From: Dehalococcoidia bacterium
GTDB lineage: Bacteria > Chloroflexota > Dehalococcoidia > UBA2979
Direction of reading: 5' to 3'
DNA: 64,000 nucleotides
Assembly: GCA_963667465.2 (NCBI GenBank)
Contig: CAXXDN010000002.1
Span: 1,280,001-1,344,000, forward strand
Part shown: positions 1 to 25,150 of the stretch, piece after piece
How positions within the stretch are numbered: position 1 is the first letter of the stretch
Layout of the letters: each line of letters opens with the position of its first letter
Position numbers and translations under genes: made by a program
The notes under the pieces: generated by a model
What the model was told of the DNA's origin: nothing
Seen by the model: the letters and a program-made list of their open reading frames with translations, nothing else
The model's database searches: none

Positions 1-1285
1 CGACCGCCCAGTTGACGATCGCGAAGAGCCCGAGGCTGACGATGCCCTTGACCTCCCAGCGCGCGAAGAGCGACACCTCGACGGCCACGACGAGCAGGTT
101 GATCAGCGAGAGCGGGATCAGGAACTGCCAGGCGAACTTCATCAACTGGTCCAGGCGGAAGCGCGGCAGGGTGCCTCGCAGCCAGACGAGCAGGAAGTAC
201 GCCGCCGAGATCTTCGCGCCGAGGATCAGGTAGCCGGGTATCCACTCCTCGAGGCCGAACAGCGACCAGCCGCCGAGGAACAACGTCGCCGTGAGCGCCG
301 CGACGAAGAGCGCGTTGCCCAGCTCGACGGCGTAGAACAGCCCGAACTTCATCCCGGAGTACTCGGTGTGGAAGCCCGCGACGATCTCCGACTCAGCCTC
401 GGCGATGTCGTTGGGCGTGCGGTTCAGCTCGGCCGTCGAGGAGAAGAAGTACGTGAACATCGCCAGCGGGAGCAGGGCGGCGAGCCAGACGTTGTGGGTC
501 GACTGCCACTCGACGATCGTCGAGAGCTGCATCGAGCCGCTGAGCAGGACGACTGAGAGCAGCGCGATCGAGAGCGGAATCTCGTAGGAGATCATCATCG
601 CGATGGTGCGCATCGCGCCGAGCAGCGCGTAGTGGTTATTCGACGACCAGCCGGCCATGAAGATCGCCAGCGTGGTGAGCGAGCTGACCGCGATCAGGAA
701 GAGGATGCCGACGTGCACGTCTAGGTACGACATCTGCGGGCCCCACGGGATCGGACCCCAGGCGACGATCATCGGGATGAAGATCAGCGCGGGCGGGAGG
801 AAGAACAGCACCTTGTCGGCGCCGCGCGGCATCAGCACTTCCTTCTGGATCAGCTTGACCGCGTCGGCGACGGGCTGGAGCAGGCCGAACGGCCCAACAC
901 GGTTCGGCCCCCGGCGAATCTGCATGCGCCCGATCAGCCGCCGCTCGACCCAGATCAGAACCAGCAGCGCGCCGCCGACGATGCTGAGGATGCCGGTCGC
1001 GCCGAGCAGCGCTGTGACGGCGTAGGAGATCCAGTGCTGACCGAGGAAGTCGAGGACGCCCGGCTGGTCGGCGTTGCGATCGTCCAGCCACTCGCGCAGC
1101 TCCTGCACGCCGATGCCGAGGTCGCGCACGTCGTACCACTGTCCGTCGAGCCGCCCGTCGATCACGACGTAGCCGATCGCGACGTTGACGGCGACGAACC
1201 CGATCGCGACGAGGGCGCCGAGCGCCACGAGCGCGCGCGGGACCGTGCGCGCCGGCAGCCGTCGGCCCACCCGCAGCGAGCTCAT
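1..1285 (-). CDS. nuoH: NADH-quinone oxidoreductase subunit H (3' end runs off the window)
   Basis: Manual translation from ATG 1285 (ATGA overlap with nuoD stop) gives WVERRLIGRMQIRRGPNRVGPFGLLQPVADAVKLIQKE and later AELNRTPNDIAEAESE. Missing from the ORF track because there is no stop in the window. Confidence 0.95.
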   Translation of the reverse strand, partial: MSSLRVGRRLPARTVPRALVALGALVAIGFVAVNVAIGYVVIDGRLDGQWYDVRDLGIGVQELREWLDDRNADQPGVLDFLGQHWISYAVTALLGATGILSIVGGALLVLIWVERRLIGRMQIRRGPNRVGPFGLLQPVADAVKLIQKEVLMPRGADKVLFFLPPALIFIPMIVAWGPIPWGPQMSYLDVHVGILFLIAVSSLTTLAIFMAGWSSNNHYALLGAMRTIAMMISYEIPLSIALLSVVLLSGSMQLSTIVEWQSTHNVWLAALLPLAMFTYFFSSTAELNRTPNDIAEAESEIVAGFHTEYSGMKFGLFYAVELGNALFVAALTATLFLGGWSLFGLEEWIPGYLILGAKISAAYFLLVWLRGTLPRFRLDQLMKFAWQFLIPLSLINLLVVAVEVSLFARWEVKGIVSLGLFAIVNWAV

Positions 1286-2385
1286 CGGTCGATCTCCCCG
1301 ACGACGATGTCGACGGAGCCGAGGGCGACGATCGCGTCCGGCAGCGACGCGCCGATCGCCATCTCGCGCAGCAGCGAGAGGTTGATCAGCGAGGGCGCGC
1401 GGATGTGGAAGCGGAACGGCGCGGACCCGCCGTCCGACACCACGTAGAAGCCAAGCTCGCCGCGAGGGCCCTCGACGCGGGCGTAGGCCTCGCCCGGGTC
1501 GGGGCGCAGCGCGAGCGGGATCTGCGTCTTGTGCGGGCCGGAGGGCAGCGCGTCGAGCGCCTGGCGGATGATCTTCGTTGACTGGCGGACTTCCTCGAGG
1601 CGCACGAGGAAGCGGTCATACGCGTCGCCCTGGCGGCCGACCGGGATCTCGAAGTCGAAGCGGTCGTAGCCACAGTAGGGCTCGGCCTTGCGCAGGTCCC
1701 AGGGCACGCCCGAGCCGCGCAGCATGGGCCCGACGAGCGAGCCGTTGATCGCGTCCTCGGCGGAGATGATGCCGACGCCGCGGCCGCGCGCGAGCAGGAT
1801 CTCGTTGTCGACGAGCAGCTCGGCGTACTCCTCGATGCGCTCCGGCAGCTCGTCAACCAGGGATTCGATCGCCGGGTAGAACTCGGCGGGCGGATCGAAG
1901 GCGACGCCGCCGATGCGCATGTAGTTCGTGGTGAGGCGCGCGCCGCAGGTCATTTCGAACAGGTCGAGGATGCGCTCGCGCTCGCGGAACATGTACATCA
2001 GCGGCGTCTGCCAGGCGCCGGCGTCGTTGACGAACGTGCCGTTGGCCATCGAGTGGCTGGCGATGCGCTGCAGCTCCGCGAAGATCACACGCAGGCAGGA
2101 GGCGCGCTCCGGCACCTCGACGCCCGCGAGGCGCTCGACGGCGAGGCAGTAGCCGAGGTTGCCGCTCATCGCCGCCAGGTAGTCGGCGCGGTCGGTGAAG
2201 GGGATGTTCTGCGTGTAGGTGCGCTCCTCGGCCAGCTTCTCCATCGAGCGGTGGAGGTAGCCGACGACCATCTCGACGTCCTGGATGCGCTCGCCGTCCA
2301 TCACGACGCGCAGCCGGAACACCCCGTGGGTCGAGGGGTGCTGTGGCCCGATGTTCAGGACGTACGGCTCGGTCGCGGCGGTCAT
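1282..2385 (-). CDS. nuoD: NADH-quinone oxidoreductase subunit D
   Basis: NIGPQHPSTHGVFRL, GYLHRSMEK, EGPRGELG, C-terminal DIVVGEIDR. Confidence 0.96.
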   Translation of the reverse strand: MTAATEPYVLNIGPQHPSTHGVFRLRVVMDGERIQDVEMVVGYLHRSMEKLAEERTYTQNIPFTDRADYLAAMSGNLGYCLAVERLAGVEVPERASCLRVIFAELQRIASHSMANGTFVNDAGAWQTPLMYMFRERERILDLFEMTCGARLTTNYMRIGGVAFDPPAEFYPAIESLVDELPERIEEYAELLVDNEILLARGRGVGIISAEDAINGSLVGPMLRGSGVPWDLRKAEPYCGYDRFDFEIPVGRQGDAYDRFLVRLEEVRQSTKIIRQALDALPSGPHKTQIPLALRPDPGEAYARVEGPRGELGFYVVSDGGSAPFRFHIRAPSLINLSLLREMAIGASLPDAIVALGSVDIVVGEIDR

Positions 2386-2395
2386 CGCAACACCG

Positions 2396-2911
2396 TCATC
2401 GCGCCTGCACCCCGGATTCCTCGAAGGGGAACTTCGGCAGGCCGGGGTGGTGTTCGGGGATCTGCAGGAAGTCCTTGCGCAGCGGGAAGCCGGGGTAGCC
2501 CTCCCAGAGGAACATGCGGCGCAGGTCCGGGTGGCCCTCGAAGCGGATGCCCATCAGGTCGTAGACCTCACGCTCCTGCAGCAGCGCGCCCCTGTACACG
2601 CCGTAGGCGCTGGGCAGCCCGGGCGCCTCGTGCTCGCCGACGATCGCCTTGACGACGATCTGGTGATTCCGGTCGAGCGATTGCAGGTGGTAGACGACCT
2701 CGAAGCGGTCGTGGCGGTCGACGGCGCAGAGGTTGCTGAGCTGGCGCGCGTCGAGGTCGGCGTCGTCGTGGAGGAAGCGCAGCACGTCCGCGATGCGCTC
2801 GGGGCGCACCTCGACCCACTCCTCGGTGGCGCGCAGGATGGCGTCGGGTACGGCGGCGGCGAGGGGCGCCGCGACGGCCTCGCCGCTCAGCTGCCGGGGG
2901 CCCGCCGGCAT
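2396..2911 (-). CDS. nuoC: NADH-quinone oxidoreductase subunit C
   Basis: EREVYDLMGIRFEGHPDLRR and GFPLRKDF; start placed at ATG 2911 next to the nuoA stop. Confidence 0.93.
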   Translation of the reverse strand: MPAGPRQLSGEAVAAPLAAAVPDAILRATEEWVEVRPERIADVLRFLHDDADLDARQLSNLCAVDRHDRFEVVYHLQSLDRNHQIVVKAIVGEHEAPGLPSAYGVYRGALLQEREVYDLMGIRFEGHPDLRRMFLWEGYPGFPLRKDFLQIPEHHPGLPKFPFEESGVQAR

Positions 2912-2912
2912 G

Positions 2913-3287
2913 CTAGCGCCACTCCAGCGCGCCGCGCCGCCAGGCGTAGGCGAGGCCGAATGCAAGGACGCCGACGAAGATCGCGGCCTTGAACAGCGCG
3001 TCGGTATCGAGCACCCCGTACTGCAGCGCCCACGGATAGAGGAAGACGACCTCCACGTCGAAGATCACGAAGCCGAGCGCGAACAGGTAGTAGCGGGCGT
3101 TGAACTGGCCCCAGGCGTTGCCCTCGGACTCCACGCCGCACTCGTAGGTGGCGTGCTTGATGGGGTCCGGGTTCTGGGGGCGGCGGCGCAGCAGGTAGAA
3201 GGCGAACGAGGCAACAAGCGGGAGCGCGGGGAAGACCACACCCAGGACGATCAGTACCCCGACGCGTCCGAACAGCTCTGGAATCAC
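2913..3287 (-). CDS. nuoA: NADH-quinone oxidoreductase subunit A
   Basis: KHATYECG, YYLFALGFVIFDVEVVFLYPWA, RGALEW; GTG start after GAGGAG. Confidence 0.94.
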   Translation of the reverse strand: MIPELFGRVGVLIVLGVVFPALPLVASFAFYLLRRRPQNPDPIKHATYECGVESEGNAWGQFNARYYLFALGFVIFDVEVVFLYPWALQYGVLDTDALFKAAIFVGVLAFGLAYAWRRGALEWR

Positions 3288-3411
3288 CCGGGCGCGCTCC
3301 TCAGCGGTCCCCGTGACGGGGTTGCGCGTCCCCCGAACCGGGACGCCACGACCCACGATCGGGCCCCCGAACCGCTCGGTCCGGCATCGAGCGAGAAGGT
3401 AGCACCGGCCC

Positions 3412-4029
3412 CTACAGCGCGCCAGCGCCGGGCGCGCTCGGTAACCCGCCCTGCTCGCGCTCACACGCCTCCGCAGCCGCGGCGCGCTCCTGCAGCGCGT
3501 ACTCCTCGCGGCTGATCTCCATCCGCTCGAAGTCGTAGCCGTCGCGCCGCACGGAGCGGAGGCGGCGGAAGCCGGCGTGCCGGAAGGCCTGCTGCGCGCG
3601 GGTGTTCGTCGTGAGCGTGTGCAGGTAGACGCGCCGCAGTTCCAGCTCGGTGAAGAGATGCCCGAGCAGGCAGCGCACGGCCTCGCTGCCGTACCCCCTC
3701 GACCAGTACGCCCGCTCCCCGATCGTGATGCCCAACTCGGCCTCTCCGAGGTACGAGTCGTACCCGTAGTACATGACGTTGCCGATGTGCCGGGCGCTCT
3801 CGCGATCCTCGATGGCGAACGTGCGCCGGAACCGGGAGGGGCGCCGCAGATCCTCGGTGATGGTGGCCGTGTAGGCGCGGAAGGTCATGGTGATCGGGCG
3901 CGTCGCGTCGTAGTCGGCGAGTTCGCGGTCCCTGCGCCAGGTGTAGTCGCGCCAGGCGTCCTCGATCTGCTTCTCGCGCAGGCGCACGAGGCGGCCCTCG
4001 GCGATCACTCGCGGCGCGGTGGCGGTCAT
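3412..4029 (-). CDS. GNAT (RimJ/RimL-like) N-acetyltransferase
   Basis: ELGITIGERAYWSRGYGSEAV acetyl-CoA motif, NTRAQQAFRHAGF; ATGA overlap with the NUDIX stop. Confidence 0.85.
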   Translation of the reverse strand: MTATAPRVIAEGRLVRLREKQIEDAWRDYTWRRDRELADYDATRPITMTFRAYTATITEDLRRPSRFRRTFAIEDRESARHIGNVMYYGYDSYLGEAELGITIGERAYWSRGYGSEAVRCLLGHLFTELELRRVYLHTLTTNTRAQQAFRHAGFRRLRSVRRDGYDFERMEISREEYALQERAAAAEACEREQGGLPSAPGAGAL

Positions 4030-4487
4030 CGCGCCGCCCCCTCGCCGTTCAGTGCCTCGATCGCCCGCTCGACGATCGCGCGTTCGTTGGGATACGTCAT
4101 CCGCTTGCACGCCTCGTGCGCGTCGTACCACTCGACCAGGTCGTACTCGCCGTCGTGGCCGCCGAAGTCGCCGCCGGTCGGCTGCATCAGGTAGTGGTGC
4201 ACCACCTTGTAGACGCGCCCGGGCCTGCCCGGCACCTCGTAGGTGTAGCGGATCGAGCCGACCGGTTCGCTCCCGTCGATGACGACCTGCAGCCCCGTCT
4301 CCTCCGCGACCTCGCGCAGCGCGGTCTGTTCGATGCTCTCGCCGCGCTCGGGTTTGCCCTTGGGCAACGCCCAGAGCCGCTCGCGCGGCCGCGCCACGAG
4401 CACGACCTCGAGGCCGGATTCTCCGCCACGCCGGTAGACGACGCCGCCGGCCGACCAGATCTCGCGCACGCCGTCTTCGGAGCTCAC
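4026..4487 (-). CDS. NUDIX hydrolase
   Basis: Nudix box GKPERGESIEQTALREVAEETGL; GTGA overlap with the upstream gene. Confidence 0.92.
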   Translation of the reverse strand: MSSEDGVREIWSAGGVVYRRGGESGLEVVLVARPRERLWALPKGKPERGESIEQTALREVAEETGLQVVIDGSEPVGSIRYTYEVPGRPGRVYKVVHHYLMQPTGGDFGGHDGEYDLVEWYDAHEACKRMTYPNERAIVERAIEALNGEGAAR

Positions 4488-7184: not shown

Positions 7185-8533
7185 GCCAACGCCTCCACCT
7201 GGTCCGGGCTGCGGCTGCGGAAGCGCATCCGGATCGCGGTGCCTTCGAACCCGAAGGCGTCCCGGATGCGATTCTCCAGGAACCGACGATAAGCGAAATG
7301 AAGCAGATCTGGATCATTCACGAAGAAGACGAACGTAGGCGGCTCCACCTCGGCCTGCGTCACGTAGAGCACCTTAAGCCGTCGCTGCCCCTGGTAGCGC
7401 GGCGGCTGCTGCGCCACCGCGCGCAGCAGCACGCGATTCAGCTCCGAGGTCTGCACACGCCGCCGCCGCACCTCCTGCACGTGGATCGCGAGCTGCAACA
7501 GCTCCGCGATGCCGTCGCCGGTCAGCGCCGAGATGAAGTGGACCGGAGCCCACGGCGCGAAGCGGTAGCGGCGATCGATCCGCTTGGCGAACTGGTGGCG
7601 GTCGGTGCCGGGCTCGGCGAGATCCCACTTGTTGACGGCGAGCAGCAGCCCCGTGCCGCGCTCGATCGCACGCCCGGCGATATGCGAATCCTGCGCGGCG
7701 ATCGGCTCTGAGGGATCGATCAGCAACACGACCACGTCGGCGCGCGCGATCGCGCCCTCTGCTTGCTGCACGGAGTGGCGCTCCGCCCCGCGGCCGATCT
7801 TGCCGCGACGGCGGATGCCGGCCGTGTCGATCAGCACCATCGCTCGCCCTTCCCAGCCGAACGGGGAATCGATGGCGTCGCGCGTCGCGCCGGGCACCTC
7901 GGAGACGATCACCCGCTCCTCGCCGAGGATCGCGTTCACGAGCGAGGACTTGCCGACGTTGGGCCGCCCGACGATCGCGATCCGCAGCGGGCGGTCGCCG
8001 TCCTCGGCGGCGGCGGGCTCGTCCGGCGCCTCCGGCAGCGCAGCGAAGACGAGGTCGAGCAGGTCGCCGATGCCCTCGGCGTGGTAGGCGGAGATCAGCA
8101 GCGGATCGCCGAGGCCGAGCGCGTGCGCCTCGTGCACGTTCGCCCGCGCCTCGCGGCGGTCGCTCTTGTTGGCGACGACGATCGTGGGCCGCCCGGCGCG
8201 GCGCAGCTGCTCGGCGATCGCGTGGTCCGCCGCGGTCAGCGCGTTCGCTGCGTCGACCACGAACAGCAGCAGGCCGGCCTCGGAGAGCGCCTGCCCCACC
8301 TGCTCGCGGATCGGCGTGTCGAAGGGGTCGTCCTCGGGGCCTTCGAGGCCGCCGGTATCGACGACGCGGAACTCGCGGCCGCGCCAGTGGCAGACGCCGT
8401 ACTGGCGATCGCGCGTGGTGCCGGGAAGGCGCTCGACGAGCGCGCGGCGTGAGCGCGTCAGCCGGTTGAACAGCGCCGACTTGCCGACGTTGGGGCGGCC
8501 GATGATCGCGACCAGGGGTGCGTCTCGGGTCAT
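7181..8533 (-). CDS. der: Ribosome biogenesis GTPase Der (EngA)
   Basis: Two GRPNVGKS P-loops, DTGG/DTAG, NKSD/NKWD, KH-like C-terminus. Confidence 0.97.
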   Translation of the reverse strand: MTRDAPLVAIIGRPNVGKSALFNRLTRSRRALVERLPGTTRDRQYGVCHWRGREFRVVDTGGLEGPEDDPFDTPIREQVGQALSEAGLLLFVVDAANALTAADHAIAEQLRRAGRPTIVVANKSDRREARANVHEAHALGLGDPLLISAYHAEGIGDLLDLVFAALPEAPDEPAAAEDGDRPLRIAIVGRPNVGKSSLVNAILGEERVIVSEVPGATRDAIDSPFGWEGRAMVLIDTAGIRRRGKIGRGAERHSVQQAEGAIARADVVVLLIDPSEPIAAQDSHIAGRAIERGTGLLLAVNKWDLAEPGTDRHQFAKRIDRRYRFAPWAPVHFISALTGDGIAELLQLAIHVQEVRRRRVQTSELNRVLLRAVAQQPPRYQGQRRLKVLYVTQAEVEPPTFVFFVNDPDLLHFAYRRFLENRIRDAFGFEGTAIRMRFRSRSPDQVEALA

Positions 8534-21797: not shown

Positions 21798-24700
21798 TCA
21801 GCGGTCCTTGCGGCGTTCGCTGCGTTCGCCGCCGCCGCTGAAGACGACGCGCGTGCGCTTGCCGCCATGGATCTGCGGCTCGGCCGCGAGCTTGCGCCGA
21901 AGCAGCGCCATCGGCCCGTCCGGCTCGCAGAGCGAGTCGGGCAGCCCGAGTACGTCCACCAGTAGCGCACGATCGAGTTCGGCACGCGCCTCGTCCTCGT
22001 CGATCTGGTCGAACGGCAGGAACTGCCGCGTCCGAAGAGCCTCGAAGGCGTCTTGTGCGGCGCGGTGTTGCTCCGCCGACAACTCCCGCACGTCAAGCGC
22101 CGGGATACGCGGGATGCCTGTGACGGTCGTCGTCCCGCGCCCGGATTGCGTCTTGTTCGCCGTCCACCAGTGCAGCAGGAGCCCGAGCGTCGAGTTACAC
22201 CACAGCACGAAGGCGTACTCGTGATCGCGGTTCTCGAAGATCACAGATGGCCAGGCCCGCCCTCCGATGCAACGCCGCTCGGTTATCGCGACGATGAGGG
22301 ACTGCGAGTTGAACTGCACGTCGGTGCTGTAGTGCACGCGCGTGGCGGTCGCCCAAATGCGGGCTGCCTTCTCGTTGATCGCGGGCTGGGCGTCGGGCAC
22401 CCCAGCCTTGATCTGGCCCTCGGCGTCAGCCTCGACTACGAGCCTGCGTTCCCGCTTGTTGTCGTGCGCCCACAGCATCGGGTAGGTAGGGACAGGGTTG
22501 AGCGGAGGTTGGAGGCGCTCGAATGGGCCACGAGCGTACCCGCTGCGGGTCGTTTCCGTAATGTCGCGGTGAACCGGCCCGCGCCCAGCGAAATCGGCGA
22601 TGGGGGCCACGGGGACGCGGACGCCGACGGCGCCCGGGTCGCGGGGCGAGACGAGAAGTCCGCGTGCGAGAGAGTAGGCGGCCTGCGCCAGCGACATGTC
22701 GGCGACGCCGACCAGCGGCCACGGCCCCTCGTCAGGAAGAGGGCAATCGAGCAGGTGGCCGCAGTGGTCGTCGCCGAGGAGGATGGGAGTGCTGCCCACT
22801 GGGCCGTCCTCCAGTCGCCGTATTCGGCCTTGCCCGATCGTGCGCCGGATCGCGTCAGCGATGAGCTGGCTGCGGATGGCGGACGTCGGCTGCTGGCTGA
22901 GTACGGCGAAGACTGATCTCGGTCGGTCGGTCGGTCGGTCGGTCGGTCGGTCGGTCGGTCGGTCGGTCGGTCGGTCGGTCGGTCGGTCGGTCGGTCGGTC
23001 GGTCGGTCGGTCGGTCGGTCGGTCGGTCGGTCGGTCGGTCGGTCGGTCGGTCGGTCGGTCGGTCGGTCGGTCGGTCGGTCGGTCGGTCGGTCGGTCGGTC
23101 GGTCGGTCGGTCGGTCGGTCGGTCGGTCGGTCGGTCGGTCGGTCGGTCGGTCGGTCGGTCGGTCGGTCGTCTCTGACACTACCGTATCACGGGTAGCCAC
23201 CACGAGGCACTCGGCCATGCCCGTGTCCGCAGAGAACGAGCTGGCTTCAGATGCGGCCCCAGCGATCGTCACCACGAGCGCGTCGCGATAATGCTCGCAC
23301 CACTGCGCGCGGATCGCATCCCACGATCCACCGCTTACCGCGCTGAGTGGCAGCACGAGCGCCACCGCTCCTCCCACACTAAACGTGCGGTGCACCTCGC
23401 TTCCGTCGTCGTCCGCGGCAGCGCCGATCCGCACCTTGCGGTGCGCGAGCTCGGCGAAGTGCGACGCCAGCCCGGCGTTGTCGTTCGACGGGGCGTCGTC
23501 CGTCAGGCTTCGCACACGCGCGGACATTCGTGCCTGTTCCCGCGGGGTGGTGTCGAACGCGGCGTAGGCCGGGATGGGTACGTCGGCGTGAGCTGCCTCG
23601 TGGTTCGTGGGACGGGTGAACGGGGGATTCATGATCACAAGGTCGAACTGACCATGGGCCACGCGGGTCACGAGGTCCTGAACGTCCTCTGGTCGGCGAC
23701 CGCCCGCAGTCGTGGCAGCCGCCTGGCCGATGAGGCGCGGCTGCTCGTGCGCCGCGAGCAGGTCGAGCGAGCCAATCCGCACCTGGCGTCCGCGCTGCCG
23801 ACCGTACGGCATCGTCAACAGGCACTCCCCCTCGAACGGCGTGGCGGGCTGGGAGCCGGCGAGCATGGCGGCAGTGAGGTGTACGGCGATGTTGAGCACG
23901 TCGAGGCCGACGAGACCGTTCTTCATCATCGGTCCGTGGAGCTTCGCGGGATCGCCGCCATGCAGTTCGTGCAGTAACGAGAGCCGCGAGTAGGCGGCGG
24001 AGAGCAGCGTGCCCGTCCCACAGGCAAAGTCGCCGATCTGGAGCGAGGCCAGGGTGTCCTCGTCGCCCCACTCGGCCCCGCCCGGCGGCCGGTCGGTCGG
24101 CAGTGCGAGGCCCGCCAGCAGGGCCGCGGCGGCGGGCCGCGTGTAGTACGTGGCGAGGAACTTGCGGTCGGCGATCAACCGCTGGAAGACCACGCCCGTA
24201 AGGTCGTGCGAGCGGGTGATGCCGCCTGCGACCAGCCGCTGCGCCGTCCTCCACAGTGGTGCGAGCACGGCCTGAGCGGTTTCAGCGGGCAGGGAATGGT
24301 CACGGGAGGGATCGAGCAGCGCCTTCGCCGTGCCGAAGATCGGCCAGTAGTTGCGTTCGAGGATCGCGTCCCATTCGGCGAGCAGCGCCTCGCGATCGAA
24401 TATGCCGTCCGTCCGGAACGCCTCGACCGTCCGCACGGGCCGCTCGTCGCCCTCCGGGGCAACCTGGAAGTCGGCCTGGGCGAGCGCTTCGTGGAACACC
24501 ACCGCGTTGACGATCACTGTCATCGCCATGCGCCGCGACTGGCCACCCGGGTCGTCGGTCTGTTCGAGAACTCCGGCCAGCGCACGGCCTCGATCGCCGT
24601 CGTACTCGTGGCGCTCCGCGGACGCCTCCGCAGCCTCCTCGACGCCGTGCTCCAGTTCGTCGGCAAGCGCCTGGACGCGGGGAGCGGGCGTGGCTGCGCG

Positions 24701-25150
24701 CTGCACGAGCATCGCGAGGTCACGTACCGAGCCACGCAGCCACCCCGCTCCGGGCAACCGCTCCGGCTCGTCGTCCGTCGCCGTGTAGAGCGCGTACTCG
24801 AGCGCGTCGGTCCTCCGGATCGCCGCGCGCAGCGGTCCATCCTGCAACTGCTGAAACGCGGGCGGATAGACGAGGGCAATCGCCGTCTCGATCTGGTGCG
24901 CATTGCCGCTGGGCTTCTTCCCCAGCCGCGCGATCGCGTCTGCCTCGGCGCTCGCGTGGTTCGCCAGCTCGGCCTCGATCACCACGGGCCAGCCTGACGC
25001 TTCGAGCACGAGCACGTCAGGGCGGCCGCCGCCCTGGAGCACGCCGCCTGTGGCCTCGGAGTGGACCGTCCAACTGTCCGGGCGTCGCAGCCCGCGCAGC
25101 ACTTCGCCCAGTGCATCGTTCACGGTCTGTTCGTGCGTGCCCGGGCTCAT
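21798..25150 (-). CDS. Type IIG-like fused endonuclease / N6-adenine methyltransferase, frameshifted (OFF) at a tetranucleotide tract
   Basis: N-terminal RPDVLV...VIEAE (PD-D/ExK-like), SAM motif GDFACGTGTLL, catalytic DLVIMNPPF. ORFs 22436-25150 and 21798-22799 join into one frame when the repeat number is a multiple of 3. Confidence 0.85.
22921..23168. repeat. Simple sequence repeat (GGTC)62, i.e. (GACC)62 on the coding strand
   Basis: 248 bp perfect tetranucleotide array counted directly. Confidence 0.97.

Follow-up and report, generated by a model that had tools for sequence, protein, structure and literature searches.

The 64,000-nucleotide stretch of DNA analysed here (the window) comprises positions 1,280,001 to 1,344,000 of contig CAXXDN010000002.1, part of the assembly GCA_963667465.2 of a Dehalococcoidia bacterium (GTDB lineage Bacteria; Chloroflexota; Dehalococcoidia; UBA2979). 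Its minus strand carries a gene for a predicted single-chain restriction–modification (RM) enzyme of the type IIG/IIL kind, which is interrupted by 62 copies of the tetranucleotide GACC (Table 1). A first-pass annotation, made from the sequence without database searches, had read this arrangement as a type IIG gene of a probable Chloroflexota lineage, turned on and off by slippage at the tract. Our analysis of the tract, of predicted structures and of the homologue family indicates that (GACC)n is probably a stochastic on/off switch of a type IIG/IIL defence enzyme.

The GACC tract and its reading frames

A regular-expression count on the minus strand gave exactly 62 perfect GACC units, and Tandem Repeats Finder (TRF) reported the array at 22919-23169 with a period of 4, 62.8 copies, 100% matches and a score of 502. 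The runner-up among the 17 TRF rows of the window scored 90. The open reading frame (ORF) starts at an ATG at 25150 and runs for 1982 nucleotides (nt) before it meets the tract. A unit whose length is not a multiple of three, present inside a reading frame in 62 perfect copies, is the kind of simple repeat that marks a phase-variable gene. Both halves of the gene are open, the N part over 660 codons and the C part over 373 codons, and (GACC)n itself is stop-free and gives a (TDRP)n peptide whatever the phase.

The frames were rebuilt by script for different copy numbers. With no units, the junction reads ...VVSET-RSVFAVL... and the protein has 1034 amino acids (aa). Sixty or 63 units give 1114 or 1118 aa and lead to the full-length stop codon, the assembled 62 units give 904 aa, and 61 or 64 units give 763 or 767 aa (stop codons in Table 1). 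Both the unit count and the frame arithmetic of the first-pass annotation, by which n divisible by 3 yields the full protein, proved exact.

Across the 2.97 Mb genome (2 contigs, about 70.5% G+C), (GACC)62 is the top-scoring short tandem repeat. All other tracts with 4-, 5-, 7- or 8-nt units have at most 4.6 copies, and the remaining arrays with at least 4 copies are built from 3-, 6- or 9-nt units; (GACC)62 is the sole long frame-shifting repeat in this genome. Loss of mismatch repair was considered as its cause and rejected, since the genome has MutS (domain I) and MutL (C-terminal domain).

Long perfect repeats can be assembled wrongly, and 62 is an assembly figure, which raises the question of whether the organism has the tract at all. 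However, contigs from three separate studies (X1, X5 and X8) cover the C part, enter the repeat at the same base and end inside it, 37-38 letters past position 22910. Independently assembled relatives also have repeats at the homologous loop, as described below. We therefore regard an assembly artefact as extremely improbable.

Predicted architecture and position of the tract

Neither Pfam nor NCBIfam has a model that scores above its cut-off for this protein, and the architecture was therefore assigned from predicted structure. Pfam gave only sub-threshold matches at the NPPF motif (MTS, E 0.0036; Eco57I, E 0.048, 14.2 bits at a cut-off of 25.3), and NCBIfam gave zero matches. PADLOC returned weak matches only (REase_MTase_IIG, E 0.00078; PglX, E 0.008-0.02), and the sole match of a sequence-profile search of the PDB was BrxX (E 0.07, at motif I).

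A structure model of the homologue P0003, itself full length, was built with an alignment of 83 full-length relatives. Its identity to the window protein is 89% over the N part and 81% over the C part, the latter being colinear with P0003 residues 666-1039. The model has a predicted local distance difference test (pLDDT) score of 83.2 and a predicted template modelling (pTM) score of 0.88. A Foldseek search of the PDB ranked the type IIG enzyme BpuSI first (E 7e-12), followed by DrdV (type IIL), BrxX/PglX, type ISP enzymes, PacII, BsaXI and CamA. Alignment with VIA-align placed CamA on model residues 329-992 (Z 24.3, root-mean-square deviation (rmsd) 5.3, 469 aligned), M.BseCI on 333-1006 (Z 21.8, rmsd 5.3, 455 aligned), M.TaqI on 334-947 (Z 19.5, rmsd 4.0, 364 aligned), DrdV on 1-916 (Z 22.1, rmsd 6.6, 517 aligned) and HsdM-type chains on about 155 to about 740.

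In the P0003 model, nuclease, methyltransferase and target recognition follow one another on one chain, which is the type IIG/IIL domain order. Motif I (GDFACGTG) precedes NPPF, as in the gamma class; both motifs had been picked out in the first-pass annotation, and both are invariant in the alignment of 83 full-length relatives. The gene is thus predicted to have a type IIG/IIL architecture, with a nuclease, a helical connector, a gamma-class N6-adenine methyltransferase and a TaqI-like recognition domain, and the fold searches bear out the type IIG identity first proposed. The encoded enzyme would be expected both to methylate and to cleave DNA.

The N-terminal domain was modelled from the window's own first 160 residues together with 25 relatives (pLDDT 90.4) and compared with 48,161 chains. 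Its top match is the nuclease domain of BpuSI (Z 9.4, rmsd 3.5, 126 aligned), and it also matches TT1808 (Z 9.0, rmsd 3.2, 114 aligned), an HsdR fragment (Z 8.7, rmsd 3.4, 118 aligned) and DrdV (Z 7.2, rmsd 3.6, 119 aligned), all with moderate Z scores; the match list consists mostly of restriction-endonuclease-fold proteins. The candidate catalytic residues D45 and E59 are invariant in both the 83-sequence and the 26-sequence alignments. Position 61 is E in most members and K in 2 of the 26 (L007 and L027), giving a canonical E-x-K in those two. A glutamate can stand in for the lysine at this third position, as in BamHI. The fold match and the conserved acidic residues agree with the PD-(D/E)xK-like N-terminus suspected at first pass.

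The junction corresponds to a loop of P0003 (residues 657-665) between strands 649-656 and 666-672 (pLDDT 82-86). Conservation across the family is lowest here, with a mean majority fraction of 0.22, compared with 0.75 in the methyltransferase part before the loop and 0.58 in the 75 residues after it. From the alignment ranges and the secondary-structure string, the tract would lie within, rather than after, the methyltransferase-like domain, some 75 residues before the domain's end, since HsdM chains align to about 740. The first-pass annotation had placed the tract after the methyltransferase core, which does not fit an HsdM alignment that continues about 75 residues past the junction. Its proposal that the tract disconnects the specificity region is refined accordingly: the off state would lose the recognition domain and, with it, the end of the methyltransferase.

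Table 1. Features of the interrupted gene in the window, and hexamers ahead of the junction repeats in relatives (positions prefixed by locus)
Feature	Position	Strand	Basis
Whole gene, predicted type IIG/IIL-like RM frame, phase-interrupted by the repeat	21798..25150	-	ORFs, frame arithmetic, colinear 1010-1040 aa homologues
Predicted N-terminal PD-(D/E)xK nuclease-fold domain, residues 1-155	24686..25150	-	own-sequence model, fold matches
Candidate catalytic D45, in GRPDVLVLE	25001-27	-	alignment
Candidate catalytic E59-A-E61, in VVIEAEL	24965-85	-	alignment
Predicted helical connector, residues 156-330	24161..24685	-	DSSP of model; HsdM, type ISP and BrxX helical parts align from about residue 155
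Predicted gamma-class N6-adenine methyltransferase domain up to the junction	23171..24160	-	motifs, fold matches (CamA, M.BseCI, M.TaqI, HsdM)
Motif I GDFACGTG, residues 373-380	24011-24034	-	sequence
Motif IV NPPF, residues 508-511	23618-23629	-	sequence
(GACC)62 tract	22921..23168	-	TRF, unit count
C part, codons 1-75, frame restored at n divisible by 3; still methyltransferase-like by predicted structure	22695..22919	-	HsdM alignments to about 740
Predicted TaqI/CamA-like recognition domain and tail, C-part residues 76-373	21801..22694	-	structure alignments to model 947-1006
Full-length stop codon	21798-21800	-	frame arithmetic
Stop of the 62-unit phase (904 aa)	22436..22438	-	frame arithmetic
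TGA of the 61/64-unit phases (763/767 aa)	22855..22857	-	frame arithmetic
Hexamer, L003	L003:7897-7902		
Hexamers, L007	L007:7897-7902 and 7906-7911		
Hexamer, L009	L009:7892-7897		
Hexamer, L019	L019:7902-7907		
Hexamer, L047	directly ahead of the 7-nt repeat	reverse	

Homologues and repeats at the same loop

The N part matches 2631 proteins (E <= 0.001) among 8000 candidates scored, and 83 of the 120 best matches are 1000-1060 aa long. Relatives with named records come mostly from metagenome-assembled genomes (MAGs) of Dehalococcoidia or Tepidiformaceae, and a few from Acidobacteriota, Alphaproteobacteria, Latescibacterota and Acidimicrobiales. Of 401 genomes sampled from the class, 65 contain a match at E <= 1e-50, and the genome of one relative is placed in the same genus as that of the window. 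These relationships support the Chloroflexota lineage that had been guessed from the sequence.

Junction regions came from 38 loci and, in addition, from the 60 best-scoring matches of the 401-genome sample that extend to the junction, lower-scoring ones being left out. The N anchor was present in 91, and 80 distinct relatives remained after removal of 10 duplicates and of the window's own locus. In 67 of the 80, the frame of the N anchor stays open across the junction until a stop 341-426 codons further on, a count that takes in the junction and the C part only. Six relatives have another repeat, with units of 4, 7 or 8 nt, at the junction loop. It shifts the frame in five of them (ACGA x14 in L003, AGCA x8.5 in L006, GACG x13.2 in L007, ACCGCAGT x12.6 in L009 and a 7-nt unit x14.7 in L047) and stays in frame in one (AGCCCAG x5.6 in L019). 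The remaining loci have an in-frame stop in the loop (L043), a common stop 61 codons later (L046 and L051) or frame breaks elsewhere (L028, L032, L049 and L096). The family is colinear across the junction and is not naturally two genes, in keeping with the initial reading of one interrupted gene.

Natural split or truncated forms without repeats also occur: the halves of L043 are otherwise open, and L046 and L051 stop at the same position. The window's own genome has a distant paralogue at C2:1249183-1250916 (L002, ORF 985-4233, + strand), about 31 kb before the window start, with 35% identity over the N part, an open frame of 1082 aa, no repeat and no Pfam match. A scan of metagenome contigs yielded 3 loci only and added nothing.

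At the protein level, 14 of the 120 best matches have tandem peptide repeats that start 2-9 residues past the conserved FSADTGMAECL. Their periods are 4 (2 proteins), 5 (2), 7 (7) and 8 (3), which implies units of 4, 5, 7 and 8 nt; no junction repeat of period 1-3 was found among the 120 best proteins. All 14 repeat-bearing proteins are cut short (673-823 aa). Within the gene, none of the five full-length repeat-bearing loci has a further repeat of at least 5 copies. Overall, one loop is recurrently used by at least 15 different units, all of a frame-shifting length.

Comparison of alleles within the same 90% clusters, taken from different assemblies, showed that four pairs of 96-100% identical homologues differ in copy number or phase. 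P0017 (823 aa) continues in a wrong frame after its repeat, whereas P0138, which is 100% identical to it over the first 600 residues, is full length (1071 aa) with about 68 in-frame repeat residues. In the pairs P0049/P0135 (98.5%) and P0019/P0140 (96%), both members are out of frame beyond the tract, but not in the same frame, and P0121/P0141 (98.5%) have different residues immediately ahead of the repeat and total lengths that differ by 4 residues. The full-length P0044 and the truncated P0052 are 88% identical and have a common repeat unit. P0020 and P0022, at 93% identity, carry units of 8 and 7 nt, respectively, so that repeat units turn over.

In a FastTree phylogeny of 118 N parts, the repeat label changes 10 times, at least 8 of these changes being forced by well-supported branches; the supports are local only, and gains are not separable from losses. 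The window allele is the sole repeat-bearer in its 13-row clade, which makes its tract a separate, recent gain. Several copies of the gene can coexist in one genome. Contig C1 of the 2.5 Mb genome G374, from the same genus, has five close paralogues (at 232319, 291064, 2260798, 2434545 and 2451298), of which three are split by differing repeats with 4-, 7- and 8-nt units and two are continuous. G374 also has two distant copies from a 44-45% identical subfamily.

In five of the six repeat-bearing relatives, a -10-like hexamer (TATAAT, CATAAT or TACAAT) ends 0-3 nt ahead of the first unit (Table 1). Among 60 loci with a placeable anchor, 5 of the 7 repeat-bearers and none of the 53 others have a hexamer in the 45 nt that follow the anchor; the window's own flank has none. 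Such hexamers are scarce in the high-G+C repeat-bearing relatives, with 0 in the 1.9 kb N parts and 1-3 on the sense strand per 13.9 kb locus. TAT accounts for 5 of 44 Tyr codons, and 15 of 69 Asn codons are AAT. In the protein tree, nine repeat-bearers of one clade all have the corresponding YN or HN residues directly ahead of the repeat, and common descent therefore accounts for part of the association. The hexamer persists while the repeat unit changes. It may serve as a promoter within the gene or promote slippage, or it may have been inherited by chance.

An internal promoter would suit a different view of the locus, in which the N and C parts are two cooperating proteins, with the C part made from an internal start and the tract as a spacer or leader. 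The hexamers fit such an arrangement, as do the separate C-part ORFs that gene callers give behind shifted tracts (P0137 and P0139) and the loop stop of L043 with its otherwise open halves. However, the 67 relatives with one continuous frame argue against it, and a split at the junction would cut a beta hairpin within the methyltransferase-like domain. Moreover, no two-hexamer sigma-70-type promoter was found around the tract in the window gene or in L007. Two cooperating proteins are thus a very unlikely explanation.

Proposed switching, its alternatives and known systems

We propose that the tract is a hypermutable (GACC)n, housed in a surface hairpin loop that is permissive and lies close to where the methyltransferase domain ends. 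At replication, slipped-strand mispairing would add or remove 4-nt units. Whenever n is divisible by 3, the frame would be continuous and the full enzyme would be made with an 80-84 residue (TDRP)n insert in the loop. In the other two phases the protein would end early, without the methyltransferase end and the whole recognition domain, and methylation and cleavage would be lost together. A population would then be a mixture of on and off cells, hedging its bets against foreign DNA, with possible epigenetic side effects. Slippage at this tract, enzyme activity and the biological role are inferred in this proposal.

The X8 contig comes from a diverged strain and allows selection on the C part to be assessed. 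Its C part shows 25 differences, of which 20 fall on the third position of on-frame codons. Of the codon changes, 16 are synonymous and 7 non-synonymous when read in the on frame, as opposed to 2 and 21 in the frame that 62 units give. This suggests that the C-terminal domain has been under purifying selection in a lineage already carrying the tract. In relatives, too, the C parts that follow the five shifted repeats contain no stops. Together with homologue alleles in differing phases, one of them full-length, the synonymous bias in the unread C part supports, indirectly, the stochastic switching proposed at first pass.

Several observations weigh against a functional switch. Out of 25 distinct repeat-bearing alleles, 22 are out of frame where one third would be expected in frame, although kin are not independent and the count is descriptive, not a test; the excess may reflect a cost of the on state, with off favoured, or genes on their way out. 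N-part frame breaks occur in 7 of 30 full-length relatives (L009, L014, L023, L025, L028, L030 and L032), and in the paralogue L009 the break accompanies a repeat. These breaks may be decay or indel errors of long-read assembly, and in the latter case assembled repeat phases would be unreliable too. Both the copy number of 62 and its phase are assembly values, as all run contigs (k-mer) break in the repeat. The X8 contig has a depth of 2, so that some of its differences may be errors. As to the enzyme, the third nuclease residue is E and not the canonical K in most members, and the protein is nowhere above cut-off in Pfam, NCBIfam or PADLOC.

The excess of out-of-frame alleles, the doubly broken L009 and the repeat-free broken relatives (L043, L046, L051, L028, L032, L049 and L096) are what would be seen if the gene were decaying, with no adaptive switching and with the repeat as a mutational scar, expanded under relaxed selection. 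Yet both halves of the window gene remain open over their whole length, and the X8 strain, also with the tract, keeps its synonymous bias in the unread frame. Decay would not predict repeats at one permissive loop only and with frame-shifting units only, and the long-repeat, in-frame, full-length allele P0138 exists. We consider decay improbable.

A second alternative accepts the switch and differs on what it controls: the enzyme could be mainly an epigenetic regulator (a phasevarion) and not a defence nuclease. Phase-variable methyltransferases that control regulons are documented, including the type IIG enzyme Cj0031 (PMC4889913; PMC5909438), and the glutamate at the third nuclease position of most members would agree with this reading. 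On the other hand, the nuclease fold and the invariance of D45 and E59 in 83 full-length members argue for retained cleavage, and the same-genus genome with five close and two distant paralogues looks like a defence arsenal. The two roles are not mutually exclusive; a mainly regulatory one seems unlikely to us, and a switched defence enzyme remains the preferred reading.

A broader proposal, which we put forward tentatively and with rather less than even confidence, is that the hairpin loop is a selected contingency site. Unrelated frame-shifting repeats would have been born or replaced there at least 8 times, giving a combinatorial, stochastic restriction repertoire, and the hexamer may be part of the device in one clade. 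The use of the same loop, by frame-shifting units only and sometimes in several paralogues of one genome, is hard to explain without selection for switching. Some Dehalococcoidia have several paralogues interrupted in this way (three of five in G374), and, if the proposal is true, this would provide slow-growing environmental or sponge-associated bacteria with such a repertoire of restriction specificities. The clade's hexamer might then act as a promoter within the gene, or it might seed the repeat or make it unstable.

Phase variation of a type IIG enzyme through a mid-gene repeat has a direct precedent in Cj0031 of Campylobacter jejuni NCTC11168, the parallel drawn in the first-pass annotation. 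The gene there is divided into cj0031 and cj0032 by a poly-G tract (9 residues, at nt 2573 of 3732) flanked by conserved domains; on/off switching is reported, and other cj0031 homologues are without the tract (PMC4889913). The window gene resembles it in having restriction and methylation on one polypeptide, in a repeat inside the reading frame, about two thirds along (here after nt 1982 of 3102, tract excluded) and in conserved domains that flank the repeat, including M.TaqI-like DNA-contact residues. The two differ in the repeat (poly-G 9 vs 62 tetranucleotide units) and in the host (a host-adapted pathogen vs an uncultured Dehalococcoidia MAG). Homologues of cj0031 lack the tract, according to that study, whereas the window family reuses the same loop with various repeats. 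No sequence-level relation was detected, the Pfam Eco57I match being below cut-off (E 0.048).

Type III mod genes such as modA of Haemophilus and Neisseria also have tetra- or pentanucleotide repeats in the frame of an N6-adenine methyltransferase, switch on and off, and can form several independent switches per genome. They differ in that mod and res are separate genes, whereas the window gene is a single fusion, and the window tract lies near the end of the methyltransferase domain, where it cuts off the recognition domain. To our knowledge, 62 units is longer than the tracts usually reported for type III mod genes. In H. influenzae the slippage rate of tetranucleotide tracts is given as about 1e-4 per generation (De Bolle et al., cited in PMC2651432). 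The statement in the first-pass annotation that such switching is known mainly from host-adapted pathogens holds in so far as it is mostly studied there, but environmental type III cases are reported: repeats are present in 17.4% of 3805 type III mod entries of REBASE, environmental species included (PMC5909438).

The type IIG/IIL enzymes of the BpuSI, DrdV and MmeI kind share the domain order by structure. Identity in the structural alignments is only 8-13%, with no profile match above cut-off, and the nuclease motif is PD-x15-ExK in BpuSI and D-x13-E-A-E (K in two relatives) in the window family. Repeat switching of these enzymes is not described in the literature consulted on them. BrxX/PglX of the bacteriophage exclusion (BREX) systems aligns through its methyltransferase and recognition region with about 157-1037 of the model (Z 19-20, rmsd 5.6-7.8, 579-595 aligned). 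These alignments begin at about 157, which leaves the nuclease-fold domain of the window family unmatched. Membership in BREX PglX was rejected, as the gene has housekeeping neighbours, no BREX genes (pglZ, brxC type) and the weak PADLOC PglX match mentioned above.

The switching mechanism itself is already known. New aspects are the lineage in which it occurs, the as yet unnamed family of enzymes, the length of the tract, the repeated use of a single loop and the presence of several switched paralogues in one genome. No report of repeat-switched methyltransferases in Chloroflexi or Dehalococcoidia was found in the literature searched. The pattern suggests that phage pressure or epigenetic bet-hedging shapes slow-growing environmental bacteria as it does pathogens, and it concerns a family that is large yet named by no curated library. 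Many natural alleles are available in known phases, and spanning long reads can report phase and methylation per molecule. Annotation pipelines will call such genes broken or split, and phases assembled in MAGs are not trustworthy.

The genes that flank the window gene on the same strand are of housekeeping type, with a class-V aminotransferase and SerA downstream and MutS2 and SelA upstream; no BREX or type I partner genes are among the neighbours. A conserved neighbourhood was considered and rejected. The downstream aminotransferase and SerA recur only in L012 (61% identity; L012:11451-13918), and MutS2 adjoins none of the relatives examined, so that the gene has no partner genes that are conserved, and the presence of MutS2 next to it looks like a coincidence. 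Relatives other than L012 stand in differing contexts; the gene may move, or its surroundings may not be conserved.

The genome has five G/C homopolymer runs of 10-15, at C1:41879-41891 (G13), C1:860996-861010 (C15), C2:222705-222715 (G11), C2:478027-478039 (G13) and C2:631483-631492 (G10). The Pfam-recognised frames beside them (LytB, NAD epimerase and D-Ala-D-Ala carboxypeptidase) include no obvious phase-variable gene. The runner-up short repeat of the genome, at C2:1785223-1785340, is a 9-nt unit (CTCTCGTCG) in 13 copies with 98% identity. Dinucleotide tracts lie near homologues of the enzyme in two MAGs, (TC)17 at L008:3506-3539 and (AG)11.5 at L039:8578-8600, and may be hypermutable. Of the eight runs that hold at least half of the gene's sampled words, two (X6 and X7) are labelled sponge metagenome; X6 covers 21798-22665 with no differences. 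A sponge association is therefore possible for the organism or for a strain close to it.

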